Origin: Verrucomicrobiota bacterium
GTDB taxonomy: Bacteria > Verrucomicrobiota > Verrucomicrobiia > Chthoniobacterales > JAFAMB01
DNA: 35,821 nucleotides
Assembly: GCA_019235445.1 (NCBI GenBank)
Contig: JAFAKL010000391.1
Span: 1-35,821 of the forward strand
Direction: 5' to 3'
The position numbers were made by a program, and so were the translations under genes. The notes below the pieces were generated by a model, which did not search any database, was not told the DNA's origin, and saw only the letters and a program-made list of their open reading frames with translations. Numbering within the stretch: position 1 is the stretch's first letter; each line of letters begins with the position of its first letter. Below are positions 6,196 through 35,821 of the stretch, piece by piece.

Positions 6196-6251
6196 AGCAA
6201 AATACTGTAAGCTCGGCGTCGTACCCTCCTCAGCTTTGATGAGGAACACTT

Positions 6252-6280
6252 GTCCGGTCTACGCGGACCCTTTAGTTTTC
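6252..6280 (+). terminator. Possible weak intrinsic terminator between the kinase and the TPR-CHAT gene
   Basis: GTCCG-N7-CGGAC hairpin followed by CCTTTAGTTTTC. A second hairpin TCCTCA/TGAGGA lies at 6227-6245. Confidence 0.25.
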
Positions 6281-6312
6281 CTCTTTGGTTCGTCTCAGGT
6301 GGAAATACGTTT

Positions 6313-16551: not shown

Positions 16552-17808
16552 TTGCGGGAAGTGATAGATTCGGAAATTCCTCCTGAAGACGCTATTGCCG
16601 CGCTCGTCGCGTTGGCCAACTCGTTCCTGCCCAGGTCAAACCTTTCAAGACTCTCTGCTCCTCCGACGGGCGCAGAAACAAAGGCGAGCAGCGCCCTCAC
16701 TCAAGAGCATTACCGACTCCTGATTGATCAACTTCCGGTGGCCACTTTCATGGCGTGGTTTAAAAACGGGCGCTGCGAGCTTTACGTAAGCTCCTACATT
16801 GAGACGCTGCTAGGATACACAGCGGCCGAATGGTCCGAAAATCCGATACTCTGGTATCAACGGCTGCACCCCGATGACCGGCAACGGTGGAACGAGGAAT
16901 TCGCATGGACGGTCGCATCTGCGCAGCCATTCCGGGGCGACTACCGATTCCTCGCCAGGGACGGCCGCCTTGTTTGGATTCACGGCGAAGTAAAGGTAAT
17001 CTATGACGAAACGGGCCTGCCTTTTATGCACGGCATAGGCTATGACATTACCGAACTAAAACTCATCGAAGATGGCTTGCGTGAGTCGCGCGAAGAAGCG
17101 CAGCGTGCCAGCCGCGCTAAGAGCGAATTCCTTACCCGTGCCAGTCATGAGTTGAGGACACCCCTCAACATTATCATGGGCTTCGCCGAATTCTTGCTTG
17201 AGGTCCAGTTGGATCCTCTTGACCCCAAACGCGAGGAGTACCTCCAGGAGATCTATAGTAGCGGCAAACAGCTGCTCGGATTGATCGATGACCTCCTTGA
17301 TCTGGCACAAGTCGAGGCAGGTAAGATGGATTTGAGGCTCGACAAATTCTTCGTTGGGGTGGCCGTAGAGAACGTCTGTGCCGGAGCCAAGACTGTTGCT
17401 CTCAAGCGCAAAATCAACATCGACGTCGCTGTTTCGCCAGAGATCGGGGAAGTTACTCTCGACCAGCAAAAGTTTAAGCAGATCCTCTACAACCTGCTAT
17501 CCAACGCCATTAAATTTACCGAGGCGGGGGGCCTGGTGACAATCCGCGTTCTGCCCCAAGACGCCCAGCACTTTAAGTTGGTGGTCAAGGACAATGGCAT
17601 CGGGATCAAATCAGAGGACATGCCACGGCTCTTCCAGTATTTTGAACAGCTGGACTGCGGCCCCTCACGGCGTTACGAGGGTTCTGGCTTAGGTTTGGCT
17701 CTCACGAAAGGGTTGGCCGAACTCCAGGGCGGAACCATCTCGATCGACAGCCATCACGGGGTCGGCACAACGGTTTCGGTTGTGCTTCCCAAACAGATTC
17801 CGGATTGA
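16552..17808 (+). CDS. Cytoplasmic PAS histidine kinase (no receiver domain)
   Basis: PAS_3-like LHPDDRQR...WIHGE...GYDITE, H-box ASHELRTPLN, N-box YNLLSNAIKFT, DNGIGI and GSGLGL. The start codon is uncertain (TTG 16552 or GTG 16561). Confidence 0.88.
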   Translation: MREVIDSEIPPEDAIAALVALANSFLPRSNLSRLSAPPTGAETKASSALTQEHYRLLIDQLPVATFMAWFKNGRCELYVSSYIETLLGYTAAEWSENPILWYQRLHPDDRQRWNEEFAWTVASAQPFRGDYRFLARDGRLVWIHGEVKVIYDETGLPFMHGIGYDITELKLIEDGLRESREEAQRASRAKSEFLTRASHELRTPLNIIMGFAEFLLEVQLDPLDPKREEYLQEIYSSGKQLLGLIDDLLDLAQVEAGKMDLRLDKFFVGVAVENVCAGAKTVALKRKINIDVAVSPEIGEVTLDQQKFKQILYNLLSNAIKFTEAGGLVTIRVLPQDAQHFKLVVKDNGIGIKSEDMPRLFQYFEQLDCGPSRRYEGSGLGLALTKGLAELQGGTISIDSHHGVGTTVSVVLPKQIPD

Positions 17809-20983: not shown

Positions 20984-22093
20984 ATGGCAATCAAAAAAAA
21001 TGTCTATGTGGTGACCCGGCGGCAGGCTATCCGCCTGAGCGCGGGCGCGCTTGGATTTGCGGCGTTCTCCCGAGTCTTCCCGGCGTACGGAGCGGATGCG
21101 ATCAGCAGTGCCAAAATCACCGCAGCCGGTGAAACAGTGAGCGGTAGCAAATACAAGAAAAAGGGTCCGTATCGAATTGGTTTCAGCAACGGGTTTTCCG
21201 GCAACACTTGGCGAACGGAAATGTTGCATTCGATGAAACAGGAAGCCTCCCAGCACCAGGATCTGGCTGATTTAATTATTGTCGACGGGCAGGGCGATAT
21301 TTCCAAACAGGTCAACGACGTCGAGAATCTCATCTCCCAGAATGTTGACGCGATCCTATGTATTGCGAACTCCAGTTCGGCGGTGGCGCCCGTGCTACGC
21401 GATGTCACCAAGCAGGGGGTCGTGACCATCCCGTTTAACCTGCCCGTGGAAGGCGAAGCTTGGACGGCCTATATCGGCACCGATCCAGAGAAAAAAGGGT
21501 TCACTCTCGGAAAATGGCTGCGACAGGCATCGGGTGACTCCGGGAAGATCGTGGCCTTAGGTGGACTACCAGGTAACTCCTATACGGCCAGCGCATGGGC
21601 CGGCGCGCAGAAGGCGTTCGAGGGTGGCCAAATCCAGGTCCTGGCCTTTCGGGACGCCTACTGGGAGGAAGATCGAGCCAAAGTTGTCATGGCGGACCTG
21701 ATCGCCGCCTATCCGCAAATCGACGGCGTTTGGTGTGACGGTTCTCAGGACGCCGCCGGCGCGATGAAGGCCTTGCTGGCGGCTAAAAGGCCTTTAGTAC
21801 CGGTGACCGGAGACGATTACAATGGGCTGTTGAAGCTTTATCAGGAACAGAGCGGCAACTATCCGAAATTCAAAATTGGACTCTTGTCCGAACCAACTTG
21901 GGAAGGTGTCGTCGCGCTACGGACAACCCTCAAGTTGCTGAACGGCGAGGATGTTCCCAAACGCCAGATCATTGAGCCCCGACTTATTACTTCGGAAAAT
22001 TATAAGGACTATATCCGCCCGGGCTTGCCTGATGGAGTCTTTGTCGATACGGATTTGTCAGATGACGAGCTGAAAACGTTGTTCAAATCGTGA
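20984..22093 (+). CDS. Sugar ABC transporter substrate-binding protein with Tat signal
   Basis: Twin-arginine leader TRRQAI. Periplasmic binding protein type 1 motifs IGFSNGFSGNTWR and QVNDVENLISQNVDAI. Confidence 0.9.
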   Translation: MAIKKNVYVVTRRQAIRLSAGALGFAAFSRVFPAYGADAISSAKITAAGETVSGSKYKKKGPYRIGFSNGFSGNTWRTEMLHSMKQEASQHQDLADLIIVDGQGDISKQVNDVENLISQNVDAILCIANSSSAVAPVLRDVTKQGVVTIPFNLPVEGEAWTAYIGTDPEKKGFTLGKWLRQASGDSGKIVALGGLPGNSYTASAWAGAQKAFEGGQIQVLAFRDAYWEEDRAKVVMADLIAAYPQIDGVWCDGSQDAAGAMKALLAAKRPLVPVTGDDYNGLLKLYQEQSGNYPKFKIGLLSEPTWEGVVALRTTLKLLNGEDVPKRQIIEPRLITSENYKDYIRPGLPDGVFVDTDLSDDELKTLFKS

Positions 22094-24660
22094 GCGACGA
22101 GCCACGGCACCCGCTCCTTGAGACCCCGGGACCCGTCTTGGCGGTCACCAGGGTGGACAAATCGTTTCCTGGCGTGCGCGCCCTGGTAAAAGTATCTTTT
22201 GAATGCCGCGCGGGCGAGATCCACGGGCTCGTAGGGGAAAATGGTGCCGGTAAATCGACGCTGATGCGGATTTTGGCCGGGGTCCTTCGCCCGGACTCCG
22301 GAAGTATCCAGATCAGTGGCAAGGGGGTGACACTCAACTCGCCACGGCATGCGCATGACCTGGGTATTGCGATGGTTTACCAGGACACGCGATTAGTCGA
22401 TGAGCTTGACGTTGCCCAGAATATCTGGCTGGAGCGAGAGCCGGGCTGGTCCTTTTTCGTCGACCGCAGCGAGATGGAACGCCGTTCGGCGGCGATTCTC
22501 CTGCGGCTTGGAATTCAGATCGATTTACGAAGAAGGGTGGGAGAGCTGAGTGTCGGGGAGCGGCAAATTGTCGAGATCGCGCGCGGGCTGACGGCCGACC
22601 CGGCCGCGTTAATCCTCGATGAACCAACTTCTTCGCTTGATCCCGCAGAGTCGAAACAGCTCGGCAAGATTTTGGCCGGGCTGCGATCGGCTGGAACGGG
22701 AATCGTGTTTATCTCCCATCGTCTTCCAGAGGTGCTGGAGTTCGCCGACCGGATTACGGTGATGAAGGACGGCGAAATAGTTTCCACCCTTGAAAACAAA
22801 GGACTGACGGTAGACACCCTCGTCAGCCTGATGGTTGGCCGCACATTGTCGCTGGCGTTTCCGTCCAAGACAGCAAAGCCGGGAGCAGCCCGCCTGGAAG
22901 TGGAGGATCTCTCGAGCCTGGGCCACTTTCAGAATGTCTCCTTTTCACTTGCTGCCGGCGAGATTGTGGGCCTTGGTGGAATACAGGGCAACGGACAGCG
23001 GCAAATCGCGCGCGCTCTCTACGGGCTTCTGCCAGCCACCGGGCGAGTCCGCCTGAATGGATCCAGGATATCTCTTCGTTCTCCGGGGCACGCCATCCAC
23101 TCCGGGGTAGTCTATGTGCCGGCCGACCGTCGAGGGGAAGGCTTATTTGTTGCCCACTCGATTCGCGAGAATATTGCCGTTCCGCATCTCTCCGCCTGGA
23201 GCAACTTCGGGATGATGTCTAATCGACAGGAGGCGGGGGCGGTTCGGGAGACGATTGACCGCCTGAAGATACGCACTCCTTCTGCGGAACAGCCAGTGGG
23301 ATTGCTGAGCGGCGGGAATCAGCAGAAAGTAGTATTCGGGCGATGGCTTCTGGCAAAACCAATACTTTACCTGTTTGAAGAACCAACCGTGGGTGTGGAC
23401 GTCGGAACCAAGCTGGAGCTCTATCGAGTGATCCGACGACTGGCGGACGAAGGCGCCGCAGTTCTGGTATTGAGCTCGGATCTGATTGAGTTGATCGGGC
23501 TGTGTGATCGCATCTTAGTGGTGGCGCATGGCAGGATTGTGGACTCAGTGCCCGCTGCCGAAGCGACGGAAGAACGAATTATCGGAAGCGCGGTCCGGAA
23601 TAAACGGGAGAATGCCCTCACTCGGGACTTCTCTGGGAAGGAGGCGGGCCAAAATGCCCGTCGGGTAAGCATCAGAGAAGTCCTTCTCCGGCGGTATGCC
23701 GGCGCAGGTTTGTTGTCGCTCCTCATTCTGTCGCTCGGCGTCTACACCACTTTGCGTTCTCCTTATTTCCTGACCGAACGCAATCTGGGGAATCTCGTGA
23801 TTCAGATCGCTCCCCTGGCTCTCGTCTCGGTCGGCCAGATGGCGGCAATTTTGATTGGCGGCATTGATCTTTCTGTCGGGCCTTCTATGAGTCTAACTAC
23901 CGCGCTGGCTTCGTATGTCATCGTCGGTAGCGCACCGGCTAACATTGTGGGGGGCATCGCTCTCTGTCTGTTTTCCGGCATTCTGATCGGCGCCTTAAAC
24001 GGGTTAACCATCCTCTACTTGCGCATCCCGGATTTGATTACGACACTTTCAACGTTTTCTGTCGTCTCGGGTCTCGCTCTAATCGTTCGACCAAGTCCGG
24101 GCGGCAATGTCAGCGAGGTTTTTTCAGACACGGTCACGACGCGAATCGGTTGGTTCCCGATCATCGGATTGGCCTTGATTCTTCTAGCCATCGCGGGAGA
24201 AAGCTTACAGCTGCGCGGTCGAGTTGGGACCCAATGGTATGCGATCGGATCGAACCCGGAAGCGGCTTTTGTGGCCGGGATTCCAGTCCGCCGGGTGCGG
24301 CTTTGCGCCTATTTATTTTCCGGTCTGATGGCCGTGTTGGCGGGGTTAGTAATTGCCGCTCGGATCGGGAGTGGAGATCCTCAGGCCGGAAGCCAGTTTA
24401 CTTTAGCATCGGTTACCGCCGTGGTTGTCGGAGGGACCAGCATCTTTGGCGGGCGCGGTACGGTCATAGGCACCTTGCTTGGGGCAATCTTGCTGGTTCT
24501 GATGCAGAATTCACTGAACCAATTGCATGTGAGCGCCTATTATCAGTACGTCTGGACCGGGGCGCTGATGCTCTTGGCGGTGGCGTCCTATTCTATGCAC
24601 GAATATGCAAATCTGGGGGCTAAGTTTAACGCCGGGCTGCAGAAACGGGCAAGGTTATAG
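22090..24660 (+). CDS. Fused sugar ABC ATPase (two NBDs, RbsA-like) and permease
   Basis: Walker A GENGAGKST, LILDEPT and LSGGNQQKV, then in the same frame a permease with GGIDLSVG, AIGSNPEAAFVAGI and AVVVGGTSIFGG. GTGA overlap with the upstream stop. Confidence 0.92.
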   Translation: MSDEPRHPLLETPGPVLAVTRVDKSFPGVRALVKVSFECRAGEIHGLVGENGAGKSTLMRILAGVLRPDSGSIQISGKGVTLNSPRHAHDLGIAMVYQDTRLVDELDVAQNIWLEREPGWSFFVDRSEMERRSAAILLRLGIQIDLRRRVGELSVGERQIVEIARGLTADPAALILDEPTSSLDPAESKQLGKILAGLRSAGTGIVFISHRLPEVLEFADRITVMKDGEIVSTLENKGLTVDTLVSLMVGRTLSLAFPSKTAKPGAARLEVEDLSSLGHFQNVSFSLAAGEIVGLGGIQGNGQRQIARALYGLLPATGRVRLNGSRISLRSPGHAIHSGVVYVPADRRGEGLFVAHSIRENIAVPHLSAWSNFGMMSNRQEAGAVRETIDRLKIRTPSAEQPVGLLSGGNQQKVVFGRWLLAKPILYLFEEPTVGVDVGTKLELYRVIRRLADEGAAVLVLSSDLIELIGLCDRILVVAHGRIVDSVPAAEATEERIIGSAVRNKRENALTRDFSGKEAGQNARRVSIREVLLRRYAGAGLLSLLILSLGVYTTLRSPYFLTERNLGNLVIQIAPLALVSVGQMAAILIGGIDLSVGPSMSLTTALASYVIVGSAPANIVGGIALCLFSGILIGALNGLTILYLRIPDLITTLSTFSVVSGLALIVRPSPGGNVSEVFSDTVTTRIGWFPIIGLALILLAIAGESLQLRGRVGTQWYAIGSNPEAAFVAGIPVRRVRLCAYLFSGLMAVLAGLVIAARIGSGDPQAGSQFTLASVTAVVVGGTSIFGGRGTVIGTLLGAILLVLMQNSLNQLHVSAYYQYVWTGALMLLAVASYSMHEYANLGAKFNAGLQKRARL

Positions 24661-24709: not shown

Positions 24710-24760
24710 TGACTCGCGAAAAACGAGTCATCTCTCCTGGAAAGCTCGCGAATTGCGAGT
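24710..24760. promoter_or_regulatory. Tandem palindromic upstream activator sites for a sigma-54 enhancer-binding protein
   Basis: CTCGCGAAAAACGAG (24713-24727, inside TGACTCG-N7-CGAGTCA) and CTCGCGAATTGCGAG (24745-24759). They are 32 bp apart and lie 75-120 bp upstream of the -24 element. Confidence 0.6.
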
Positions 24761-24834
24761 GTCAGAAGCTGGAGGAAAGAGGAGTTCTATGTCTAAGGCC
24801 TTGAAAATGAAGCGATTCCACTATCTGTACCTTT

Positions 24835-24850
24835 TGGCACGAGTCTCGCT
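24835..24850 (+). promoter_or_regulatory. Sigma-54 (-24/-12) promoter of the kdp locus
   Basis: TGGCAC-GAGTC-TCGCT: GG at 24836-24837 and GC at 24848-24849 with the required 10-nt gap. One mismatch to TGGCAC-N5-TTGC. The locus encodes a sigma-54 activator. Confidence 0.75.
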
Positions 24851-24937
24851 AAGGCAATAAGCGTTGCATCTCATTGTCCAAATGGTGGCGTCGGAAGAAA
24901 CCTGGGCGGTTCGAGGGCTTCTGGGCAAAGAAACGGA

Positions 24938-26761
24938 GTGATGAAAAGGAAAATCCTTCTTTGGCTCTGCCCGATCCTCATCCTTTTCCTTGGGGTAGGT
25001 CTGTACGCAGTCCTGTTGTTCAATCGGCTCGGCGGTTCGATCAATGTGATTCTGCGGGAGAACTATGACAGCGTGCTGGCCGGCCAGCAGATGAAAGAAA
25101 CCGCTGAGCGGATGGATTCCGGGCTCTCATTTGCCCTGGCCGGTGAAGAGAAGAGGGGGCGCGACCTTTTCGAGCAAAATTTTCCCCTTTTTCAAAAGAG
25201 TCTTAAGAAGGAGTTGGGCAATATCACCCTCCCTGGGGAAGGGGAGGTCGCCGATAAGATCAAGGAGGCCGAAGATCGTTACCAGGCGTTAGCTCGAACC
25301 TTTTGGGGCACGTCCGACCCGGACACCCGGCGGGAAATGTATTTCTCCCAGCTTTTGCCGCTGTTCACGGAGATCAAAAACAACGCTCAGGAAGTCATTC
25401 GCCTCAACCAGGATAACATGGTGGAGGCGGATCACCGTGCCAAATCCCTGAGCGCCGATTCCACGCGGGCCATGGTGGTCCTGCTGGCCTTTGGCGTGGC
25501 TTTGGCCATCTCGCTTGGATACGGATTGCAGCGAGCCATTCTCGGTCCGATCCAGACCTTGACCAGGGTTTCTAAAGAATTGGGTCAAGGCAAGCTGGAT
25601 CAGGTTGTTCCAGTGGCGTCGAACGACGAGCTCGGCCAACTCGCGGACGCATTCAATAAACTGGCGGCACGTTTGCGAGTTTATCGGCAGGCCACCACCG
25701 ATCAAATCTTGCAGGCCCGCCACATGACCGAGATTACTTTCTCCGCCTTCCCGGACTCAATTCTTGCCTTCTCGCTGGATGGAAAGATCAATTTTACCAA
25801 TCCTGCAGCCGTAAAGCTTCTCCAGAAACTGAACGGAAACCATGAACTCCCGCTGGCGATCCAGGAGGAAGTCGGAAAGGTATTAAAGGGAGCCCCGGAC
25901 AGTGTGCCGACAAGTTTTGAAAAGGCGATCCCGGTCCGGATTGATGAGCACGAGGCTTTTCTGCTGCCGAGGGTCATCGGAATGCGCGACGAGCCTGGCA
26001 ACCTGTTCGGGGCTGCCCTGGTTCTGCAGGATGTCACCCGATTCCGTCTCCTGGACGAGGTGAAGACGAACCTGGTTTCGACCGTCAGCCACGAACTGAA
26101 AACCCCGCTGACCAGTATTCGCATGGGTCTTCACCTGTTGCTGGAGGAAAGAATAGGCCCGCTCAACCCCAAGCAGCTCGAGTTGTTAGTGGCGGCGCGC
26201 GAGGACTCCGAACGTCTGCTGCGGATGATCAATGATCTCCTGGACCTGGCGCACCTCGAATCGGGCCAGACGCGACAGCAATTCGAGGTTATCTCACCGC
26301 GGACGCTCATTGAGGAGGCATTGCCAAACCTGCGCTCATTGACTGAGGCGCACGATTCACGTTTGGTGGCGGATGTCGCGCCGGACCTCCCTGACGTTAC
26401 GGTTGATCCCCGCCAGATTAATCACGTCTTTTCCAATTTTGTCTCGAACGCGGCCAGATTCTCCAAGCCGGGGGAGGAGGTCCTGTTGTCAGCCAAAAAA
26501 GTGGGCAAAGCAGTTCGCTTTTCGGTCTCAGATCACGGACCGGGGATTTCTATCGATTTTCAACCACGCGTTTTCGAACGGTTTTTCCGAATTCCCGGGA
26601 CTGAAGATTCGAATGGCGTCGGCCTTGGCTTGGCGATTGCCAAGCAGATCGTCGTTTCACACGGCGGAAGTATCGGGCTTCATAGCGCGCCGGGTGCCGG
26701 GAGCGAATTTTACTTCGATCTGCCATCAGGCGGAAAGAGCAACGAAGGAACAATCAGGTGA
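24938..26761 (+). CDS. Membrane sensor histidine kinase, TM-helical periplasmic domain-TM-HAMP-PAS-HisKA-HATPase (KinB-like architecture)
   Basis: Two hydrophobic TM segments, HAMP DELGQLADAFNKLA, PAS-like FTNPAA...QDVTR, H-box VSHELKTPLTSI, NFVSNAARF, DHGPGI and GVGLGL. Confidence 0.92.
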   Translation: MMKRKILLWLCPILILFLGVGLYAVLLFNRLGGSINVILRENYDSVLAGQQMKETAERMDSGLSFALAGEEKRGRDLFEQNFPLFQKSLKKELGNITLPGEGEVADKIKEAEDRYQALARTFWGTSDPDTRREMYFSQLLPLFTEIKNNAQEVIRLNQDNMVEADHRAKSLSADSTRAMVVLLAFGVALAISLGYGLQRAILGPIQTLTRVSKELGQGKLDQVVPVASNDELGQLADAFNKLAARLRVYRQATTDQILQARHMTEITFSAFPDSILAFSLDGKINFTNPAAVKLLQKLNGNHELPLAIQEEVGKVLKGAPDSVPTSFEKAIPVRIDEHEAFLLPRVIGMRDEPGNLFGAALVLQDVTRFRLLDEVKTNLVSTVSHELKTPLTSIRMGLHLLLEERIGPLNPKQLELLVAAREDSERLLRMINDLLDLAHLESGQTRQQFEVISPRTLIEEALPNLRSLTEAHDSRLVADVAPDLPDVTVDPRQINHVFSNFVSNAARFSKPGEEVLLSAKKVGKAVRFSVSDHGPGISIDFQPRVFERFFRIPGTEDSNGVGLGLAIAKQIVVSHGGSIGLHSAPGAGSEFYFDLPSGGKSNEGTIR

Positions 26762-27441
26762 GTGCGAACATTCTCATCGTCGACGACGAGACGAACGTGC
26801 GGTTGAACTATCGGATTACCCTTGAAACAGAGGGCTACGAAATCTTCGAAGCGACCTCGGGTGAAAAAGCGTTGGAGGCGCTGGCCGAGCGCTCGTTTCA
26901 CCTTGCGATCCTTGATATGCGGCTTCCGGCAATGGACGGTCTGCAACTGCTGGGCAAGATGCGGGAAGTAGGAATCACGGTCCCTGCGATGATCGTTACG
27001 GCCTACAGCGATGTGCCGCACGCGGTGCAGGCAATGAAGCTCGGGGCGATTGACTTCTTGCAAAAGCCTCTCAGGCCTGGGGACCTCCGCCGCATTGTGG
27101 CGGAGATCCTGACCCGTCACACCCCGCAGAAAGAGCACACGGCTGAAAGCTACAACTCCCACATCGTCGCGGCGAAACGTTTTCTGAATTTGCGCTCGTT
27201 CGCGAAGGCCAGAATGCATCTCATCAAGGCGTCGGAGTTAAACAACAAATCCGTCGAAGCCTTTAACCTGGCTGGGGTGCTCGCGGAGATGCTCGACGAC
27301 ATCGACAAAGCAAGAAAGTACTACGGCCAGGCGATCAGAATAGACAAGAACTATGAGCCGGCCCAACAGAACATGCGCCGGCTCTTTGAACTACAACATT
27401 TCGGATCTACCTCGGAGCCCCTCAATTTGGGAGAAACGTAA
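26758..27441 (+). CDS. Response regulator with REC plus C-terminal TPR (no DNA-binding domain)
   Basis: REC motifs ILIVDDE, LDMRLPAMDG, VTA and LQKP, then TPR EAFNLAGVLAEMLDDIDKARKYYGQAIRIDKNYEPAQQN. GTGA overlap with the kinase stop. Confidence 0.88.
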   Translation: MSANILIVDDETNVRLNYRITLETEGYEIFEATSGEKALEALAERSFHLAILDMRLPAMDGLQLLGKMREVGITVPAMIVTAYSDVPHAVQAMKLGAIDFLQKPLRPGDLRRIVAEILTRHTPQKEHTAESYNSHIVAAKRFLNLRSFAKARMHLIKASELNNKSVEAFNLAGVLAEMLDDIDKARKYYGQAIRIDKNYEPAQQNMRRLFELQHFGSTSEPLNLGET

Positions 27442-27454
27442 CGGTTAAAACCTT

Positions 27455-27538
27455 ATGACTGACATCATTTATATCGGAGTAAGCATACTTTCGGCTGGGA
27501 TCCTCATTTTATTTACCTGGTCCTGCAGCAGAATCTAA
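27455..27538 (+). CDS. 27-aa hydrophobic membrane peptide upstream of kdpF (accessory Kdp peptide candidate)
   Basis: Hand translation gives MTDIIYIGVSILSAGILILFTWSCSRI-stop: a single TM helix, with 13-nt gaps to both neighbours. Below the ORF-track cutoff. Confidence 0.75.
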   Translation: MTDIIYIGVSILSAGILILFTWSCSRI

Positions 27539-27551
27539 ACACACACGAACT

Positions 27552-27635
27552 ATGGCAACCCTAATCGTCGGTATCATATCCGTTGGTCTCATCATCTATC
27601 TCCTTTTTAGTATCCTGCGACCGGAAATGTTTTAA
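27552..27635 (+). CDS. kdpF: K+-transporting ATPase subunit F
   Basis: Hand translation gives MATLIVGIISVGLIIYLLFSILRPEMF-stop, with the KdpF C-terminal YL..(S/A)(I/L)L.PE.F signature, directly upstream of kdpA. Confidence 0.92.
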   Translation: MATLIVGIISVGLIIYLLFSILRPEMF

Positions 27636-27670
27636 CTCAGGTTTTGGGTACGTATCCACCACTAAATATT

Positions 27671-29482
27671 ATGAACACATCAGGCTGGCTTCAGCTGGCA
27701 CTCTATATTGTCGTGCTCCTTTTGATCACCAAGCCCCTCGGTATTTATCTATTTCGGGTGCTGGATGCCAACGGGAAAACATTCCTCGATCCGGTGGTTA
27801 AGCCGGTTGAACTGTTAACTTACCGGATTTTCGGGGTGGATCCCGAAAAAGAGCAAGGGTGGATTCTATACACTATGGCGATGCTCATTTTCGAGTTAGT
27901 TACCGTGCTTTTTACCTATCTGGTTCTGCGTTTCCAGAACTTCCTGCCGCTCAATCCCCAAGGTATGGCCGGAGTAACTGACCACCTTGCTTTCAACACC
28001 GCCTGGAGTTTCGCCACTAACACCAACTGGCAAAGCTATGGCGGCGAATCGACCATGAGTTACCTGTCGCAGATGCTGGCCCTGGCCTCGCACAACTTTT
28101 TCTCGGCGGCCATCGGTATCGCGATCGCCGCGGCAGTGGTCCGCGGGATTGTGCGCCACTCCACAAAAACGCTAGGCAACTTTTGGGTGGACCTGGTGCG
28201 AATAAATTACTATTTGCTGCTTCCGATTAGCATTGTTTACGCAGTCTTCCTGGTAGCCCAGGGTGTTCCGCAGAATTTTAAGCCGTACGACACGGCAAAG
28301 GTCGTGGAGGTACAAACGGTCCAGGTGCCCAAAAAAGACGACGCCGGCAACCCGGTCAAAGATGCGAAAGGGAACGCGGTCATGGTCGACCAAAAGGTAG
28401 ATTCCCAGAGCATCGTGGAGGGACCAATTGCATCGCAAATGGCAATCAAGATGCTTGGCACCAACGGCGGTGGGTATACCAACGCGAACGCAGCGCACCC
28501 CTTTGAAAACCCGACCCCGCTCTCCAATTTTATTCAGATGCTCTCAATCTTTGCGATTCCAAGCGCATTAACTTACTATCTTGGAAGGATGGTCAAGAAC
28601 CAGGGCCATGGATGGTCCGTATGGGCAGCGATGGCAATTGTATTTGTCGCTGGAGTCCTTGTTTGCTGGGGAGCGGAGGCGGCGGGGAATCCGATCATGA
28701 ACCATGTCGGGGTCGATCGCGCCGGCGGCAACATGGAAGGGAAGGAAGTCCGGTTCGGCATCTTTAACTCTGCTTTGTTTGCCACCATCACGACCGACGC
28801 TTCTTGCGGTGCAGTCAACTCGATGCATGACTCCTTTACTCCGCTCGGTGGGTTCGTACCCCTGTTTAACATCCAAATGGGAGAGATTATCTTTGGCGGG
28901 GTGGGCTCCGGATTGTACGGAATGATTCTGTTTATCGTGCTGGCGGTTTTCATCGCCGGGCTGATGGTGGGACGGACGCCGGAGTATCTCGGAAAAAAGA
29001 TTGAGTCGTATGATGTAAAGGTTGCTTCCATCGCGATCCTGCTGATGGCTTTTTCGATCCTGGGCTTTGCGGGTTGGGCCGCCTTGACGCCGTGGGGCCA
29101 GGCCGGAGAGAACAACAGCGGACCCCATGGTCTGAGCGAAATCTTTTATGCCTACAGCTCATGCACCGGGAACAATGGCAGCGCGTTCGCTGGGCTGACG
29201 GCAAACCCGACTAACAATGATCCTCATTACGATATCACCTTGGCCTTCGCGACGATCATTGGCCGATTTGGAATGATTATCCCGGTGATGGCCTTGGCCG
29301 GTTCTCTGGGGCGAAAGAAACTGATCGCCACCGGCGCCGGGACCTTCCCGGTGACTGGCGGCTTGTTTGTGACTTTGCTGATCGGAACGATCCTGCTGGT
29401 CGGTGCCCTGACCTTCCTGCCGGCCTTAACACTGACGCCGATTCTGGAACATTTCCTGATGCTAAACGGAAAACTCTTTTGA
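27671..29482 (+). CDS. kdpA: K+-transporting ATPase subunit A
   Basis: Motifs SFATNTNWQSYGGE, IKMLGTNGGG, NAAHPFENP, MEGKEVRFG, SCGAVNSMHDS, GRTPEYLGKKI and NNGSAFAGL. ATG at 27671 is preferred over TTG 27644. Confidence 0.97.
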   Translation: MNTSGWLQLALYIVVLLLITKPLGIYLFRVLDANGKTFLDPVVKPVELLTYRIFGVDPEKEQGWILYTMAMLIFELVTVLFTYLVLRFQNFLPLNPQGMAGVTDHLAFNTAWSFATNTNWQSYGGESTMSYLSQMLALASHNFFSAAIGIAIAAAVVRGIVRHSTKTLGNFWVDLVRINYYLLLPISIVYAVFLVAQGVPQNFKPYDTAKVVEVQTVQVPKKDDAGNPVKDAKGNAVMVDQKVDSQSIVEGPIASQMAIKMLGTNGGGYTNANAAHPFENPTPLSNFIQMLSIFAIPSALTYYLGRMVKNQGHGWSVWAAMAIVFVAGVLVCWGAEAAGNPIMNHVGVDRAGGNMEGKEVRFGIFNSALFATITTDASCGAVNSMHDSFTPLGGFVPLFNIQMGEIIFGGVGSGLYGMILFIVLAVFIAGLMVGRTPEYLGKKIESYDVKVASIAILLMAFSILGFAGWAALTPWGQAGENNSGPHGLSEIFYAYSSCTGNNGSAFAGLTANPTNNDPHYDITLAFATIIGRFGMIIPVMALAGSLGRKKLIATGAGTFPVTGGLFVTLLIGTILLVGALTFLPALTLTPILEHFLMLNGKLF

Positions 29483-29488
29483 ACGACC

Positions 29489-29522
29489 GACTAACAACTG
29501 ACACTGACCACTAATCACTAAT
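29489..29522 (+). repeat. Degenerate heptamer tandem repeat in the kdpA-kdpB spacer
   Basis: GACTAAC AACTGAC ACTGAC CACTAAT CACTAAT fills most of the 41-bp intergenic gap. Confidence 0.6.
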
Positions 29523-29523
29523 T

Positions 29524-31542
29524 ATGCCTGCTCAAGCTCAATCTATTTTTGATCCGGCGATTATTGTGCCGGCCATCGGGGATTCGTTCAAAAAACTGAA
29601 CCCGGTCACCCTGGCCAAGAACCCGGTGATGTTCGTGACGGAGGTGGGAGCTCTGATCACCACCGTGCTGCTGGTTACAGGGCACGGCTCTAATTTCGGA
29701 TTCCAACTGCAGATCGCCCTCTGGCTCTGGTTTACTGTCCTGTTTGCAAACTTTGCCGAAGCGATGGCCGAGGGACGAGGCAAGGCTCAGGCGAAAGCGT
29801 TGCGTGCCACCCGAACAGAAACGTTTGGAAATCGCCTGAAGCCGGACGGAACCGTGGAAAAAATCGCCGCGAACTTGTTACGGAAAGGGGACATCGTGGT
29901 GGTTTCAGCCGGCGAACTTATTCCTGGGGACGGTGAAGTGATCGAAGGAGCCGCCACTGTCGACGAGTCAGCAATTACGGGTGAGTCTGCGCCAGTGATC
30001 CGCGAGTCCGGCGGCGACCGCAGTGCGGTCACCGGCGGGACCAAGGTCTTATCTGACGTGATAAAGATCGAGATCACGTCGAACCCAGGTGAGACGTTCC
30101 TGGATCACATGATTGCCCTGGTCGAGGGCGCTTCGCGCCAAAAAACGCCGAACGAGATTGCTCTCACCATTCTCCTCTCGGCCCTGACCTTAATCTTTTT
30201 GATCGCCATGATGTCGTTGAAAGCCTTCGGCATCGCCTCATCGGTCGATTTTACGATTCCGGTTCTGGTTGCCTTGTTGGTCTGTCTGATTCCCACCACC
30301 ATTGGGGGATTACTCAGCGCGATCGGGATTGCGGGTATTGATCGCCTCGTCCAGAAGAATGTTCTCGCCATGAGCGGACGTTCGGTCGAGGCGGCGGGAG
30401 ATGTAGATGTGCTGTTTCTCGACAAGACAGGCACAATTACGATCGGTAACCGGCAGGCGACCGAATTTCTTCCTGCGCCCGGAGTGACGAAAGAGCAATT
30501 GGCGGATGCTGCTCAACTGGCCTCCCTTGCCGACGAGACGCCAGAGGGGCGCTCGATTGTTGTGCTGGCCAAAAACTTCGGTATTCGAGCCCGGGAATTG
30601 AGCGAGATGCCTAAAGTGATCTTCGTTCCGTTTACTGCTCAAACGCGGATGAGCGGTGTTGACATGGATGGCACGAGCTACCGGAAAGGGGCTGCGGAGG
30701 CGATTCGCAACTACGTGGGCGGCCACATGCCGGAAGCGGTCGAGAAGGATGTCAAGGCGGTTTCCAGTTCTGGCGGCACGCCTCTGGTGGTGGCAACCCG
30801 CGAACGAGTGCTCGGCACGATTCAGCTCAAGGACATCGTCAAAGGCGGCTTGGCAGACCGGTTTGAGCGGTTCCGCGCCATGGGAATCCGCACCGTGATG
30901 ATCACGGGCGACAACCCATTGACGGCTGCCGCGATCGCCCATGAGGCCGGGGTAGACGACTTCCTGGCGGAAGCGAAACCGGAAGACAAACTGGCGCTCT
31001 GCCGGAAGGAACAACAAATCGGCCACCTGGTGGCCATGACGGGCGACGGGACAAACGATGCTCCCGCTTTAGCTCAAGCTGATGTCGGCGTGGCGATGAA
31101 CACCGGCACTCAAGCGGCGAAAGAGGCGGGGAACATGGTCGATCTCGATTCGAATCCGACCAAGCTGATCGAAATTGTTGAGATCGGGAAACAACTGCTG
31201 ATCACACGCGGAGCGCTGACCACCTTCAGCATCGCAAATGACGTGGCGAAATATTTTGCCATTCTGCCGGCCATGCTGGTCGGCACGTTCAAAGAAATAG
31301 CACCACTGAACATCATGTTCCTGAAATCGCCGGAGAGCGCGATTTTAAGCGCCGTCATTTTCAACGCGGTAATCATCATCGCCTTGATCCCCCTCGCGCT
31401 GAAGGGGGTCAGATTCCGGCCGCTCGGCGCCGCAAAAATCCTGGCGCGCAATCTCCTGATTTACGGCTTGGGAGGCATCCTCCTGCCGTTTGTCGGGATC
31501 AAGTTGATCGACATGTTTATCACCACCATTGGACTGGCCTGA
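29524..31542 (+). CDS. kdpB: K+-transporting P-type ATPase subunit B
   Basis: Motifs [27 protein letters not shown] (phosphorylation site), KGA, TGDN and [10 protein letters not shown]. Confidence 0.98.
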
Positions 31543-31556
31543 TCTGAGAAAATCTT

Positions 31557-32168
31557 ATGAAAACCTTTGTGAAAGAACTTTACACCTCGGTCGCTGCAAC
31601 AGTCGTCCTTTGTGCAGTGGTGAGCGGTTTGTATCCGGTTTTGATTTGGGGAATCGGGCAGGTTTTATTTTCGCATCAGGCCAATGGCAGCCTGGTCGAG
31701 AATAACGGTCAGATTGTCGGCTCTGAGCTCTTAGCTCAGGGATTTAGTGGGGCGAAGTACTTTCATCCCAGGCCGTCTGCAGCGGGAACCGGATACGATC
31801 CACTTAACTCCGGCGGGTCGAACCTGGGACCGACTTCGCAGAAATTGATTGACGGAATTAAAGCGAATGTCGCTCAGTACCGGCAGGAAAACGGTTTGTC
31901 CGGCGATGCGGTCGTTCCTGCGGACGCCGTCACGGCGTCCGGGAGCGGGTTGGATCCTCATATCAGTCTACAAAACGCTCGGATACAGGTTCCGCGTGTC
32001 GCTAAGGAGCGGGGTTTCAGCGAAGATGTCGTCCGGGGCGAAGTTAGCAAAGCCACAGATAACCCTTTGTTCGGTCTCGGCGGTGAGCCCGGGGTGAACG
32101 TGTTGAAGGTAAACCTTGCTCTCGACTCGCTCGCGCCGAAAGGCAGACTGGCAGAAAAGAAGCCTTAA
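31557..32168 (+). CDS. kdpC: K+-transporting ATPase subunit C
   Basis: Motifs QANGSL, YFHPRPSA, SGGSNLGP, VTASGSGLDPHIS and GEPGVNVLKVNLALD. Confidence 0.97.
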   Translation: MKTFVKELYTSVAATVVLCAVVSGLYPVLIWGIGQVLFSHQANGSLVENNGQIVGSELLAQGFSGAKYFHPRPSAAGTGYDPLNSGGSNLGPTSQKLIDGIKANVAQYRQENGLSGDAVVPADAVTASGSGLDPHISLQNARIQVPRVAKERGFSEDVVRGEVSKATDNPLFGLGGEPGVNVLKVNLALDSLAPKGRLAEKKP

Positions 32169-32188
32169 CTTTCGCGCATGCGGCGCGG

Positions 32189-32229
32189 TCGGCCTGTTCG
32201 GTCCGGCGGTTTCCGGACCGACGGGCCGA
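32189..32229. other. Strong GC-rich hairpin between kdpC and the KdpD-N gene
   Basis: TCGGCCTGTTCGGTCCGG-CGGTTT-CCGGACCGACGGGCCGA forms about 17 bp with one bulge and one G-U pair. There is no U-tract. Confidence 0.6.
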
Positions 32230-32309
32230 ACTAGTTCATAAAGAACGTGGAGTGAAACGGAGTAAGATTGTCTTGCGCGATGAAGCCGAAGCATGCACCG
32301 GCCGATGTT

Positions 32310-33440
32310 ATGTCAGTCGCCGATAATTCTAACCTGAATCCTACGCCCGATGATTTTTTAACCATCATCCGCCGGCAACAGCTCGGCAAGCTGAAGATTT
32401 ACCTGGGACCCTGTCCTGGAGTGGGCAAGACCTATCAAATGTTAATTGAAGGAAACCGGCTCCGCACCCAGGGCGTGGACGTGGTGATCGGCTATGTCGA
32501 ACCTCACAACCGTCCTGAAACCACTGCGCAGATCGGCCGGCTGGAGATTGTTCCCCCTCTGGTGGCGAAGTATCACGGGATCGCTTTGAAAGAGATGGAT
32601 CTGGACGGGGTCCTGGCCAGGAAGCCGACGGTTGCGCTGGTCGACGAACTCGCGCATACCAACGCGCCCCAGAGCCGGAATCGCAAGCGCTACGAGGATG
32701 TGCAAGACTTGCTGCGGGCGGGAATCAACGTTATCGCCACCGCGAACATCCAACATTTCGAGTCGCTCTATAACATTGTCCAAGACGCGACCGGAGTGAA
32801 GGTAAAGGAGCGTGTACCCGACGAAATAATTACGCAGGCAGACCAGGTGATAAACATTGACCTGCCGGCGGAAGATCTTCTCGAGCGGCTTCAGGCCGGC
32901 AAGATTTATCCCAAAGAAAGGGTGGAGGCGGCCCTGAAAAATTTTTTCACCTCCAAAAACCTGACCCGGCTGCGCGAAATGACGCTAAGCGAGACGGCGA
33001 ATATTCTTGATCGCAAGAACCGTGAGGGTACCGAAACAGAGAGCAACATCGGCGGTCTTGGCCAGGTCATGGTGGCCATCAGCAGCCAGGGACCTGATCC
33101 CGGCCGGTTGCTTCGCAAGACCGCTCGCCTTGCCGAGCGGCTGAATGCGCAATGGTACGCCGTCTACGTTCGGACGCCCAGCGAGTCGGCGGTAAAGATA
33201 GATGCGACAGTCCAACGCCAAGTCGCCGAGACCCTGGAAGCAGCGCAAAAAATGGGCGGATTAGTCATTTCTCTCAAGCATGAAAACGTAGCCCAGGCGT
33301 TGATCTCTTTCGCCAAGGAATACGGCATTACCCACGTTGTGCTCGGACGCCCCGGCAAAAAAGCCTTCCGTTTGTTTAGCCGGGCGCTGCACGATGAATT
33401 AATTCAGGAGTTACCCGGAATAGATCTGGTGATCGTTTGA
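32310..33440 (+). CDS. kdpD: Soluble KdpD N-terminal sensor (KdpD domain plus USP domain; no TM or kinase domain)
   Basis: GKLKIYLGPCPGVGKTYQML (Walker A-like), EMDLD, ALVDELAHTN, KRYEDV, NIQHFESL, GKIY and LREM, then a USP domain ending IDLVIV-stop. Start could be 32268, 32280 or 32310. Confidence 0.9.
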   Translation: MSVADNSNLNPTPDDFLTIIRRQQLGKLKIYLGPCPGVGKTYQMLIEGNRLRTQGVDVVIGYVEPHNRPETTAQIGRLEIVPPLVAKYHGIALKEMDLDGVLARKPTVALVDELAHTNAPQSRNRKRYEDVQDLLRAGINVIATANIQHFESLYNIVQDATGVKVKERVPDEIITQADQVINIDLPAEDLLERLQAGKIYPKERVEAALKNFFTSKNLTRLREMTLSETANILDRKNREGTETESNIGGLGQVMVAISSQGPDPGRLLRKTARLAERLNAQWYAVYVRTPSESAVKIDATVQRQVAETLEAAQKMGGLVISLKHENVAQALISFAKEYGITHVVLGRPGKKAFRLFSRALHDELIQELPGIDLVIV

Positions 33441-33501
33441 TCCCGGCGCCGCCGTGTCTGCTTGCGCGCCGGCGCCGCTTTAGGCCATATTCTTCGCGGC
33501 C

Positions 33502-34824
33502 ATGCGGATCCTGGTGGTGGATGACGAGAAGAACATTCGGCGGGCAATGTCCCTTGCGCTGGAGTCGATGGATCACGAAGTCGCCACGGCTTCGACCCGT
33601 CAAGAAGCTCTCGAAGCGCTCCGGCAAACGGCCTTTTCGGTTATTTTTCTCGACCTGAAACTCGGACAGGAAAACGGCCTGAAAATGTTGCATGCAATTC
33701 ACCAGGTTGCCCCGTCTACAGCCGTGGTCATGATTACGGCTTACGCGTCCATCGAAACGGCAGTCGAAGCAATCCGCCAAGGTGCCTATGATTACCTGCC
33801 AAAGCCCTGTACCCCGGAACAGATTCGGCAGATTTTGTCGCGGATCTTTCATACCCGTAAGCTGGAAAATCGGGTTCTGGAACTGGAATCGCGGCTGCAG
33901 TCGCAGGTTCCCGAGCTGGAGTTGCCATCAGAAAATCCTGCCATGCAGAAAACGCTGGAAGTGGCCTGGAAGGCATCCGCCAGTGAAGCGACGGTATTGC
34001 TCCTGGGCGAAAGTGGAACTGGCAAAAGCATGCTGGCCAGAGCAATGCACGAACGCAGCGGCCGGCGCGAAAGCGCGTTTGTCACCGTGAGTTGTCCGAG
34101 CCTGTCTCGGGACTTGTTAGAGAGCGAGCTTTTCGGGCACGTCAAAGGGTCGTTTACAGGTGCGCACCAGGAAGTAGCCGGCAAGGTGGCCGTAGCCCAG
34201 GGCGGCACGCTTTTGCTTGACGAGATTGGCGAATTGCCTCTTGAGATCCAGGCAAAGTTGCTCAGGCTTCTGCAAGAGCGAGAGTACGAGCGGGTAGGCG
34301 ACCCCAGTCCTCAAAGAGCGGACGCACGCGTGATTGCGGCCACCAACCGTGACCTGAATCAGGCGGTCGCGGCAGGCCGTTTTCGAGAAGACCTCTTTTA
34401 TCGGCTCAACGTGATCAGCATTACCTTGCCGCCCTTACGCGAGCGCGCTGCGGATATACCCCCCTTAGCCCACAGGTACTTGACGTTTTTTGCCAGGCAA
34501 GCGGGCAAGCGGCTGGATGGTTTCTCAGAAGAGGCGCTCGCTAAACTGCAGAGTTACGCCTGGCCCGGTAATTTACGCGAATTGCGCAACGTGGTTGAGC
34601 GCGCCATTATTCTTGGCAGCGGACCGGTTATCCAGGCCGCTGACCTGGCGATTTTGCCTGGACGCGAGGAGCCGCAGGCGCGGTTGGGCGCGCGCGTTTC
34701 TCTTGAGACCATTGAGAACGAGCACATCCGCCAGGTGCTGGCACAATCCCGGACCGTGGACGAAGCTGCTGAAATCCTCGGGATCGACCCCGCAACACTC
34801 TACCGGAGGAAAAAGCGGCTTTAA
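33502..34824 (+). CDS. Sigma-54-dependent response regulator REC-AAA+-Fis HTH (NtrC family, AlgB-like)
   Basis: REC FLDLKLG, Walker A GESGTGKS, ESELFGHVKGSFTGA, Walker B LLDEIGE, FREDLFYRLNV, WPGNLRELRNVVERA and HTH AAEILGIDPATLYR. Confidence 0.95.
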   Translation: MRILVVDDEKNIRRAMSLALESMDHEVATASTRQEALEALRQTAFSVIFLDLKLGQENGLKMLHAIHQVAPSTAVVMITAYASIETAVEAIRQGAYDYLPKPCTPEQIRQILSRIFHTRKLENRVLELESRLQSQVPELELPSENPAMQKTLEVAWKASASEATVLLLGESGTGKSMLARAMHERSGRRESAFVTVSCPSLSRDLLESELFGHVKGSFTGAHQEVAGKVAVAQGGTLLLDEIGELPLEIQAKLLRLLQEREYERVGDPSPQRADARVIAATNRDLNQAVAAGRFREDLFYRLNVISITLPPLRERAADIPPLAHRYLTFFARQAGKRLDGFSEEALAKLQSYAWPGNLRELRNVVERAIILGSGPVIQAADLAILPGREEPQARLGARVSLETIENEHIRQVLAQSRTVDEAAEILGIDPATLYRRKKRL

Positions 34825-34880
34825 GAGGCGGAAAGATAGGTGGCGCTTGCTTGGTACCCTGTTTAGCGCCTGTCCAGAAA

Positions 34881-34935
34881 GAGCGAGGACGAGGACGATT
34901 TAAGAACGAGCGGACGAGGAGAGATTGACGAGCGA
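34881..34935 (+). repeat. Purine-rich GACGAG/GAGGAC hexamer-type repeat patch
   Basis: GAGCGAGGACGAGGACGA...GAACGAGCGGACGAGGAGAG...GACGAGCG downstream of the activator gene. Confidence 0.45.
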
Positions 34936-34943
34936 TCAGGACT

Positions 34944-35042
34944 CTACTTTGTCTCACCATCCCGGTGGTGGGGTTACGTTGAAGTCAGCATCCGAATCTT
35001 CCAGGTCTCGCCCTCACGAACATCAATCTATCCCCAATAACC
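34944..35042 (-). pseudogene. 3' remnant of an NTF2/SnoaL-like (DUF4440-type) gene
   Basis: The minus strand reads GYWG*IDVREGETWKIRMLT-[frameshift]-NVTPPPG-[frameshift]-GETK-stop. This resembles the recalled C-terminal GYW..I.VREG..WK.RM.T.N.TP motif of NTF2-like proteins. Confidence 0.55.
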
Positions 35043-35099
35043 CTATGGCAAATATCGATTCAACGTAGACGGCGAATTCCATCGCAAAGGTCTTCGCCT

Positions 35100-35141
35100 G
35101 CTAAGACGGCCCGATTCGGGTTTGGCTTAGCGTTGTTTTTT
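35100..35141 (+). terminator. Putative intrinsic terminator
   Basis: GCTAAG..GGCCCG-ATT-CGGGTT..CTTAGC stem followed by GTTGTTTTTT. Confidence 0.45.
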
Positions 35142-35403
35142 GGCCGCTTCGCTAGCGGAACCCCACTTACCGTGGTTCGAACGATGCCCCGCTCCTCGAC
35201 CCTTTTCAAATAGTGCATCTTCGAACGTATCCAACAATCGCGGGCTCGGGCACATCGGCGGCGGAGCCGAGTATCGGTTTACTCCCCATATCGGGATCTT
35301 CGGCGAGGCCGACTATAACTGGGTCAGCGGCGGGAATCACAACTTCAATTCCGGAGTAAAAGACTTTGTCCAGGTCAATTTCGGCCTCAGATTCGCTTTC
35401 TAA
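35140..35403 (+). pseudogene. C-terminal fragment of an outer-membrane beta-barrel protein
   Basis: GHIGGGAEYRFTPHIGIFGEADYNWV...FVQVNFGLRFAF-stop gives three amphipathic strands and a terminal Phe beta-signal. There is no signal peptide or N-terminal strands. Confidence 0.7.
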
Positions 35404-35520
35404 GCGAATGAGCGAGTTCCTGTGACCTGGTGACCGGTGAAACAACCAGTCTTAGAACAGGAAGGACCATCCTCTATTCGAGCCCTCCGTCCTGACGGAG
35501 CCGGCGAGATAAGGATCTGG

Positions 35521-35658
35521 TTGCGGCGGGTCCTACTCACAGTAGGATCCGCCCTTCTTTTCAGCTTGGCCGCCTGCGCCAATCAGAGCTCCACCAACCA
35601 ACGGACGGAGCCTCTGTCTGTTACGAACGCCCCGGTCGCGGCTCCGCCTGGGCGGTAA
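35521..35658 (+). CDS. Putative small lipoprotein (45 aa)
   Basis: AAGGA lies 5 nt before TTG 35521. MRRVLLTVGSALLFSLAAC has a basic n-region, an h-region and a LAAC lipobox. The ORF track starts at GTG 35437. Confidence 0.55.
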   Translation: MRRVLLTVGSALLFSLAACANQSSTNQRTEPLSVTNAPVAAPPGR

Positions 35659-35821
35659 TGCCGGCAACACCACCCCGCGGTTGGCGGGTACTCTCGCCAT
35701 TGGGGGAGCGGGAATAAAGGCTCTCGCGCGTCTCGAACTGCCAGTGCATCGTCTCACAAATGGGAGGCATACCGCCGTTGGCGATTTGGCCGATTTTCAA
35801 TGCGCTATTATAGCGACGAGC

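Follow-up and report, generated by a model that had tools for sequence, protein, structure and literature searches.

A kdpFABC operon of a Chthoniobacterales bacterium with predicted sigma-54 control, in which KdpD/KdpE appear to be replaced by a four-helix-bundle kinase, an NtrC-type activator and a stand-alone KdpD-N/Usp protein

The contig JAFAKL010000391.1 of a Verrucomicrobiota bacterium of the order Chthoniobacterales (GenBank assembly GCA_019235445.1), analysed over its full stretch of 35,821 nucleotides (nt) and referred to here as the window, carries on the plus strand at 24713-34824 a potassium pump operon, the Kdp run, in which the textbook regulators KdpD and KdpE appear, from domain content, to be replaced and not split. 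Besides the pump, the run encodes a membrane sensor kinase of another class, a receiver protein with tetratricopeptide repeats (REC-TPR), an NtrC-type activator and a stand-alone protein composed of the KdpD N-terminal domain (KdpD-N) and Usp, and the operon is very likely controlled by sigma-54 together with the activator. The core of this layout is already in print for Desulfovibrio vulgaris; the window adds a variant, and the loci compared with it a wide extension, of a barely studied form of Kdp control. The window is one entire contig of a 546-contig assembly, with a genome of 4.05 Mb that is 91.7% complete.

The sequence-only reading of this DNA had described a co-oriented run of promoter, kinase, REC-TPR, micro-peptides, kdpABC, KdpD-N/Usp and activator, and all of these parts were found, with open reading frames (ORFs), Pfam and NCBIfam matches placing every gene of the run on the same strand:

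24713-24759, plus strand: tandem 15-bp palindromes of the CTCGC-N5-GCGAG type, candidate upstream activating sequence for the activator
24835-24849, plus strand: sigma-54 type -24/-12 element TGGCAC-N5-TCGC with one mismatch, about 90 nt 5' of the kinase ATG
24941-26761, plus strand: sensor histidine kinase of 606 amino acids (aa), with transmembrane helix, periplasmic four-helix bundle, transmembrane helix, HAMP, PAS-like region, HisKA and HATPase_c
26758-27441, plus strand: REC-TPR single-domain response regulator of 227 aa (Response_reg, 101 bits; TPR below the cut-off, E 3e-4)
27455-27538, plus strand: conserved hydrophobic peptide of 27 aa that matches no family in Pfam or NCBIfam
27552-27635, plus strand: kdpF, 27 aa (TIGR02115, 32.9 bits, cut-off 26.85; PF09604)
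27671-29482, plus strand: kdpA (KdpA, 745 bits), with ATG at 27671 in an ORF open from TTG 27644
29524-31542, plus strand: kdpB (TIGR01497, 1038 bits), with the TGES motif kept
31557-32168, plus strand: kdpC (KdpC, 232 bits)
32310-33440, plus strand: stand-alone KdpD-N and Usp, lacking membrane and kinase parts, in an ORF open from TTG 32268
33502-34824, plus strand: NtrC-type sigma-54 activator of 440 aa, with REC, Sigma54_activat AAA+ (219 bits) with GSFTGA loop, and HTH_8

KdpA, KdpB, KdpC and KdpF all score above their curated cut-offs and are encoded within one operon, as is characteristic of the KdpFABC P-type K+ ATPase. The intergenic gaps are short (13 nt from REC-TPR to the 27-aa peptide), and the kinase and REC-TPR genes share 4 nt, the start of the second overlapping the stop of the first. 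The kinase ORF opens at GTG 24938 and relatives begin at ATG 24941; within the genus, kinase identity amounts to 79-86% and KdpA identity, counted from the start at 27671, to 84-94%.

Control from a sigma-54 promoter had been proposed from the sequence, and the prediction holds up well: the promoter element, the tandem candidate upstream activating sequence, an NtrC-type activator with GSFTGA loop and the Walker motifs A and B, and rpoN in the genome are all present, with binding of the activator to its site being predicted. The -24/-12 match gains weight through the unique palindrome pair upstream of it and through conservation in relatives. None of 100 shuffles yields such a tandem pair, which occurs once in the 4.05 Mb of the genome, with starts 32 bp apart and located 75 nt 5' of the -24/-12 element. 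The same pair (starts 31-32 bp apart) is found 5' of the kinase gene in eight of nine same-genus loci, approximately 75 nt upstream of a TGGCAY-N5-yCGC element, and the ninth locus holds one exact and one degenerate copy.

This pattern extends to a wider set, the best 80 of 344 loci from a search with the kinase sensor-domain alignment, which by record title derive from Chthoniobacterales, other Verrucomicrobiota, Planctomycetota, Acidobacteriota, 'delta proteobacteria'/Syntrophales/Desulfobacterales, Bacteroidota, Gemmatimonadales, Zixibacteria, Hydrogenedentota and Sumerlaeota and include Chthoniobacter flavus Ellin428, Singulisphaera acidiphila DSM 18658 and Aquisphaera insulae. When no more than one mismatch is allowed, 22 of these 80 loci have a -24/-12 element within 300 nt 5' of the kinase gene, compared with 0/80 on the opposite strand and 0/80 inside the gene, and with up to two mismatches the counts are 51 upstream, 5 on the opposite strand and 12 inside the gene. 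A GCA-N3-TGC palindrome precedes the kinase in 39/80 loci, at a density of 1.54 per kb compared with 0.07 per kb elsewhere in the loci. Its flanks vary with lineage: the window's genus has CTCGCA-N3-TGCGAG, the Chthoniobacter group TCGTGCA-N3-TGCACGA or TCATGCA-N3-TGCATGA, and the 'delta', Gemmatimonadales, Bacteroidota and Hydrogenedentota loci CCTTGCA-N3-TGCAAGG. Such a combination of upstream palindrome and -24/-12 element would be expected where a single activator orthogroup acts on a single type of promoter ahead of the kinase-kdp operon. With Rfam at gathering thresholds no match was obtained across the window, and thus neither a cyclic di-AMP (c-di-AMP) nor any other riboswitch.

The genes behind the promoter are conserved as a unit as well. 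Kinase, REC-TPR, peptide (where present), kdpFABC and KdpD-N follow each other in the same order in 19 of 20 loci fetched from relatives, the twentieth being a lone second KdpD-N. Throughout the wider set the pump genes are co-oriented with the kinase gene in 67/80 loci (eight further loci are on contigs too short to tell and in five the pump is not within reach), KdpD-N is linked to the kinase family in 52/80, and, in the 71 loci that extend far enough to show it, an activator of the window's orthogroup is encoded directly 5' of the kinase 46 times. The expectation that similar gene sets occur in other genomes is thereby supported across phyla for the kinase family, the activator and a stand-alone KdpD-N with kdpFABC. 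KdpD-N was matched in 35 of 61 related genomes, with short forms of about 380 aa prevailing in the window's family (25/36). A comparison of the flanks of relatives detected no synteny outside the cassette save one 82-nt match.

Individual relatives depart from the single-copy arrangement. Genome G005, of the window's genus, holds three full kinase/REC-TPR/kdpFABC/KdpD-N cassettes (L036, L037 and L038, on C34, C28 and C12), and in L037 a second tandem palindrome pair (10497/10529) stands 3' of KdpD-N, before a further partial kinase/REC-TPR copy. In L119 (10001-20678, 'delta proteobacterium') the kinase is followed directly by a short KdpD-N, and about 1.7 kb further on a separate kdpFABC is accompanied by a second KdpD-like gene running to the end of the locus; two layers of Kdp control may coexist there.

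Whether the sigma-54 promoter serves the entire run depends on the stretch between REC-TPR and the pump genes. It could alternatively drive the kinase and REC-TPR only, with the pump genes transcribed mainly from a promoter of another type inside or after REC-TPR. In relatives the gap from REC-TPR (or the kinase) to kdpF/A ranges from 66 to approximately 1700 nt, with about 1.4 kb inserted in L070, L072, L074 and L141 and 3 kb in L050, and the kdp genes of D. vulgaris are, in the available part of the published accounts, bound by two further regulators. A division of this kind is nevertheless unlikely, as the gap in the window is restricted to 13 nt, terminator-like sites are about as frequent in the run as expected (13 compared with 12.8), no -24/-12 site with up to two mismatches is found between kinase/REC-TPR and kdpF/A in any of the 80 loci, and kinase-(REC-TPR)-kdpFABC is the dominant gene order. 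Transcription of the pump genes from the sigma-54 promoter is thus the preferred reading. Two GC-rich imperfect hairpins without a T run, at 32190-32228 in the gap between kdpC and KdpD-N and at 33445-33476 between KdpD-N and the activator gene, might serve in processing or attenuation and thereby adjust the amount of pump relative to that of the regulators.

The sensor kinase had been taken for one part of a split sensor, a description that did not survive the domain analysis. HAMP, HisKA and HATPase_c were identified, PAS is below threshold in the window's copy (E 0.16) and clear in the ortholog from a record titled Singulisphaera acidiphila (PAS_4, E 1.3e-11), and the domain search recovered neither DUF4118 nor GAF in the window kinase. 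The N-terminus was modelled as a four-helix bundle between two membrane helices (residues 1-260; mean predicted local distance difference test score (pLDDT) of 78, above 90 across the periplasmic part). A true split KdpD with a transmembrane/GAF/kinase chain was consequently ruled out, the DUF4118/GAF membrane module of KdpD being absent and the N-terminus being a periplasmic four-helix bundle, which assigns the kinase to a different class. The closest folds to the sensor domain are NarQ, chemoreceptors and the Adeh_2942 sensor; KinB ranks lower in the list, its sensor domain 4llc giving a target-normalised TM-score of 0.76 (E 0.017), and a sequence search of the PDB with the sensor-domain alignment returned HAMP matches only. 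In Pseudomonas, AlgB/KinB consists of an NtrC-family regulator encoded upstream of a kinase with transmembrane helices, four-helix bundle, HAMP and PAS. The resemblance of the window to this pair is a generic four-helix-bundle fold similarity with no family-level match; NCBIfam yielded generic sub-threshold matches only, and NarQ, chemoreceptors and Adeh_2942 are better fold matches.

That KdpD/KdpE would be replaced, and not split, in the window follows from a kinase that is not a piece of KdpD and from the presence of the canonical pair in other families of the same order, where an 896-aa KdpD and an OmpR-type KdpE follow kdpC (with the full architecture in L060). The window holds no single-chain KdpD-N/Usp/DUF4118/GAF/HisKA/HATPase_c protein and no adjoining REC plus Trans_reg_C regulator; Trans_reg_C is absent from the two receiver proteins of the run, which carry TPR or AAA+/HTH_8 instead. 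In the genome, one KdpD-domain gene and one kdpA are present, both in the window, and a full-length kdpD was not found in the 91.7% complete assembly. The records of S. acidiphila DSM 18658 (titled 'complete sequence') and C. flavus Ellin428 likewise hold one short KdpD-domain gene and one kdpA each and no full-length KdpD. The proposed absence of KdpE accordingly stands for the run itself. For the genome it is limited to 'not found', since the assembly is incomplete and the model test is weak: no protein reached the NCBIfam KdpE cut-off (best 126 bits compared with 325), with a model that passes in one of 14 control genomes, E. coli only.

A 212-residue alignment links the stand-alone KdpD-N/Usp protein to 2r8r, the solved KdpD N-terminal domain; in the ORF open from 32268, the alignment of relatives begins at about residue 13. 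Both Walker motifs, A (G-X5-GKT) and B (DE), are preserved, with G33, G37, V38, G39, K40, T41, D112 and E113 invariant in 29 sequences; the Usp part bears the E. coli-type motif RXXXR-X8-WXAVY, of which R269, R273, W282 and Y286 are invariant. The KdpD N-terminal domain has been shown to be an atypical serine kinase that inactivates KdpB, for E. coli as well as for the short KdpD of Deinococcus geothermalis, and short KdpD/Usp proteins are retained 3' of the pump genes, transcription being handled by a two-component system of its own (Silberberg et al., 2024, PMC11018627). In the window, E154-S155 of the KdpB TGES motif align with E161-S162 of E. coli, so that the sequence features of a KdpD-type atypical serine kinase and its target, Walker A, Walker B and the E-S of TGES, are found together (with catalysis being predicted). 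Since the Walker motifs and the TGES serine are kept, KdpD-N is most likely a serine kinase that shuts off KdpB and not solely a modulator of the sensor kinase, an assignment that we hold to be moderately probable.

On the other hand, KdpD-N/Usp might be the detached input domain of the sensor, binding the HAMP/PAS kinase in trans and tuning its balance of kinase and phosphatase activity, which would be compatible with a serine kinase role. In E. coli, the N-terminal half of KdpD and its C-terminal half show complementation in trans. Kinase and KdpD-N are immediate neighbours (within 300 nt, either order) in 8 of the 52 loci that hold both, the only KdpD-N of one genome stays beside the kinase with kdpA on another contig, and the Usp is of the E. 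coli type; the authors of the D. vulgaris work likewise interpreted the two proteins as a single kinase 'split into two ORFs'. The window kinase is, however, not homologous to the C-terminal half of KdpD, as DUF4118 and GAF are missing, and in 38/52 loci KdpD-N is located within 400 nt 3' of kdpC, the position expected of a pump regulator, and modulation in trans is thus possible but doubtful. A complex prediction that paired KdpD-N and the kinase's cytoplasmic portion (alignments A2 and A3) scored 0.08 compared with a mark of 0.32 and is neutral on binding. In L042 (genome G008, C3) a second KdpD-N gene, which shares 74% identity with the window's, stands by itself: kdp, kinase and REC-TPR genes are missing from the approximately 4 kb to one side of it and from the 9.5 kb to the other.

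The REC-TPR protein retains the acidic pocket of receivers, and the best genome match of its receiver is the receiver of the activator (86 bits, first of 28 matches). Clusters of REC-TPR proteins of 220-230 aa similar to that of the window occur in several phyla. A full REC-TPR lies 3' of the kinase in 30/74 loci, by title mainly of Verrucomicrobiota and Planctomycetota. In a sample of 401 genomes of the phylum, with seven candidates per genome scored and the count thus being a lower bound, at least three contain REC-TPR at E 1e-25 or better (the window's own genome, G049 and a partial match of 148 residues). REC-TPR is a lineage-specific accessory part, and any specific role ascribed to it is tentative. 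The 27-aa peptide next to it is considered a real gene because its length and pattern recur in 18 of 19 loci of the family; in the wider set, tblastn detected it in 5/80 loci (L065, L066, L067, L077 and L096).

We favour, with moderate confidence, the view that 24713-34824 is a single K+ uptake unit driven from the sigma-54 promoter, which would operate as follows. Upon K+ limitation or osmotic stress, signals assumed by analogy with other Kdp systems, the membrane kinase would phosphorylate the activator, which would bind the palindromes and open the sigma-54 promoter, with transcription proceeding through kinase, REC-TPR, pump genes and KdpD-N. As transcription runs through the kinase gene, the sensing side would amplify itself. 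Under K+ replete conditions KdpD-N/Usp would phosphorylate the TGES serine of KdpB and turn the pump off. REC-TPR would be another receiver for this kinase and serve as a phosphate sink or connector; being lineage-specific, it could be lost. Phosphotransfer from the kinase to both receivers is inferred.

Several observations weigh against this proposal. At the promoter, the number of -24/-12 matches in the window (2) does not exceed the 2.31 expected, with two or more in 67 of 100 shuffles, and the -12 part of the match is TCGC instead of TTGC; the second match, at 11252, is inside a 1701-aa ORF and was taken as chance. With respect to the regulators, three full-length OmpR-family regulators are encoded elsewhere in the 91.7% complete assembly, and therefore a canonical regulator could be hidden. 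The Usp of the window contains no c-di-AMP-type motif SXS-X20-FTAXY as in S. aureus, and a diadenylate cyclase is present in the genome. REC-TPR is absent 3' of the kinase in 44/74 loci, and in the same-genus L033 (4453-4593, equal to L065 11817-11909) a remnant consisting of query residues 1-31 and 209-227 is left in an otherwise intact cassette, so that the protein is dispensable there. The position of the activator gene 3' of KdpD-N occurs in 0/19 family loci and 0/40 wider loci. In five of five same-genus genomes tested the best activator homolog (64-67% identity) is unlinked to kdp; the palindrome accompanies none of these five orphans, and no kinase gene adjoins in the two loci examined. 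Finally, no sigma-70-like promoter for the activator was found in the preceding 61-nt gap, and a sigma-54 promoter needs pre-existing activator to fire.

From the unique position of the gene, the unlinked same-genus homologs and the fact that the window's activator groups with another genus and not with same-genus copies, it could be argued that the activator at 33502-34824 stands next to the run by chance and regulates other genes, with the kinase signalling to REC-TPR or to an unlinked regulator. This is very improbable given that the activator belongs to the one orthogroup encoded directly 5' of the kinase family in the majority of the loci with room to see, and that palindromes as expected of its binding site are found in the genome at the kdp promoter only. 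The window activator is the single member of the orthogroup in its own genome and the best own-genome match of the activators of relatives, and in the activator tree it is sister, with 100/100 support, to a kdp-linked upstream activator of another genus and not to the same-genus orphans. Kinase and activator are probably a cognate pair. In a comparison with L052, L054 and L056, the window activator is 61-67% identical to same-genus homologs and 74% identical to that of the other genus, unlike the rest of the cassette, which follows genus lines. This suggests that the activator gene has been replaced or moved, and its place inside the operon is peculiar to the window. The positive feedback loop put forward by the sequence-only reading is therefore general for the kinase, across the family, and not for the activator.

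A more far-reaching version of the proposal would have the kinase as a K+ sensor with two outputs, one through the activator to kdp transcription and another through REC-TPR or direct contact to the serine kinase activity of KdpD-N on KdpB, with the 27-aa peptide as an extra pump subunit. We consider this decidedly unlikely; if true, four proteins would rebuild in trans the one-chain 'tandem serine-histidine kinase' logic of KdpD, and the question how short KdpD/Usp proteins without a c-di-AMP motif sense K+ would be answered.

Among known systems, the sigma-54 regulator of the D. vulgaris Hildenborough locus DVU3334-DVU3339.1 targets its own kdp operon, and KdpD-N/Usp and histidine kinase are separate proteins (Rajeev et al., 2011, PMC3333781; Kazakov et al., 2015, PMC4641369; both in the portions available). 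The remark in the sequence-only reading that no mechanistic description was known hence had to be dropped, the same logic being found there already. As in the window, a sigma-54-dependent regulator is associated with kdpFABC, KdpD-N/Usp is apart from the kinase, and the accessible text of these papers describes no OmpR-type KdpE; this likeness rests on the published description, as no D. vulgaris sequence is among the best 80 of the 344 loci. The gene order reported for D. vulgaris is kdpFABC, KdpD-N, kinase and activator, whereas in the window kinase and REC-TPR come first behind the promoter; an extra 27-aa peptide precedes kdpF, and a REC-TPR is not described for the D. vulgaris locus in the same text. 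In a limited literature search, direct control of kdp by sigma-54 and an activator was encountered in the two D. vulgaris papers only; Francke 2011, in its available part, concerns PTS-Ntr and not an activator.

With E. coli the window shares the pump, the Walker motifs of KdpD-N, the E. coli-type Usp motif and the KdpB TGES serine, but not the single-chain KdpD and the OmpR-type KdpE, in place of which a sigma-54 promoter and an NtrC-type activator are found. The short KdpD/Usp of D. geothermalis is likewise stand-alone after the pump genes, with a separate two-component system and a predicted KdpB serine kinase function, in the part of that work available (PMC11018627). Silberberg et al. (2024), within the same available text, tie short forms to c-di-AMP, in contrast to the window with its Usp lacking the S. 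aureus-type motif, and the separate system of the window differs from the one described there by its NtrC-type/sigma-54 character and its specific four-helix-bundle kinase family.

The contig neighbourhood of the run is rich in signalling genes. Besides the run, three further PAS/GAF histidine kinases are encoded on the contig (3793-6195, 13727-16225 on the minus strand, and 16552-17808), two of which are hybrids with receiver domains, and the 1701-aa protein at 6250-11355 combines many TPR repeats with a C-terminal CHAT protease-like domain. Upstream of the promoter, an 856-aa protein in which two ABC ATPase domains are fused to a branched-chain-type permease (22090-24660) is preceded by a periplasmic binding protein (20984-22093); the fusion has no DNA match in the loci of relatives. 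The approximately 1 kb 3' of the activator gene (34825-35821) contains short ORFs only, among them an 87-aa fragment at 35140-35403 with a weak, sub-cut-off match to an outer-membrane beta-barrel (E 1.7e-4), and a strong terminator-like hairpin at 35525-35553.

While Kdp regulation is taught as KdpD/KdpE, the window together with the 80 loci reveals a second coherent regulatory module, in which a specific four-helix-bundle kinase family is combined with an NtrC-type activator and its recognisable palindrome, with a promoter of the sigma-54 type and with KdpD-N as a separate protein. In the accessible part of the literature D. vulgaris is the one published case, and at the level of DNA binding only. 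As the module occurs in cultured hosts, these could be used to address the K+ signal input of short KdpD/Usp proteins and the function of REC-TPR.

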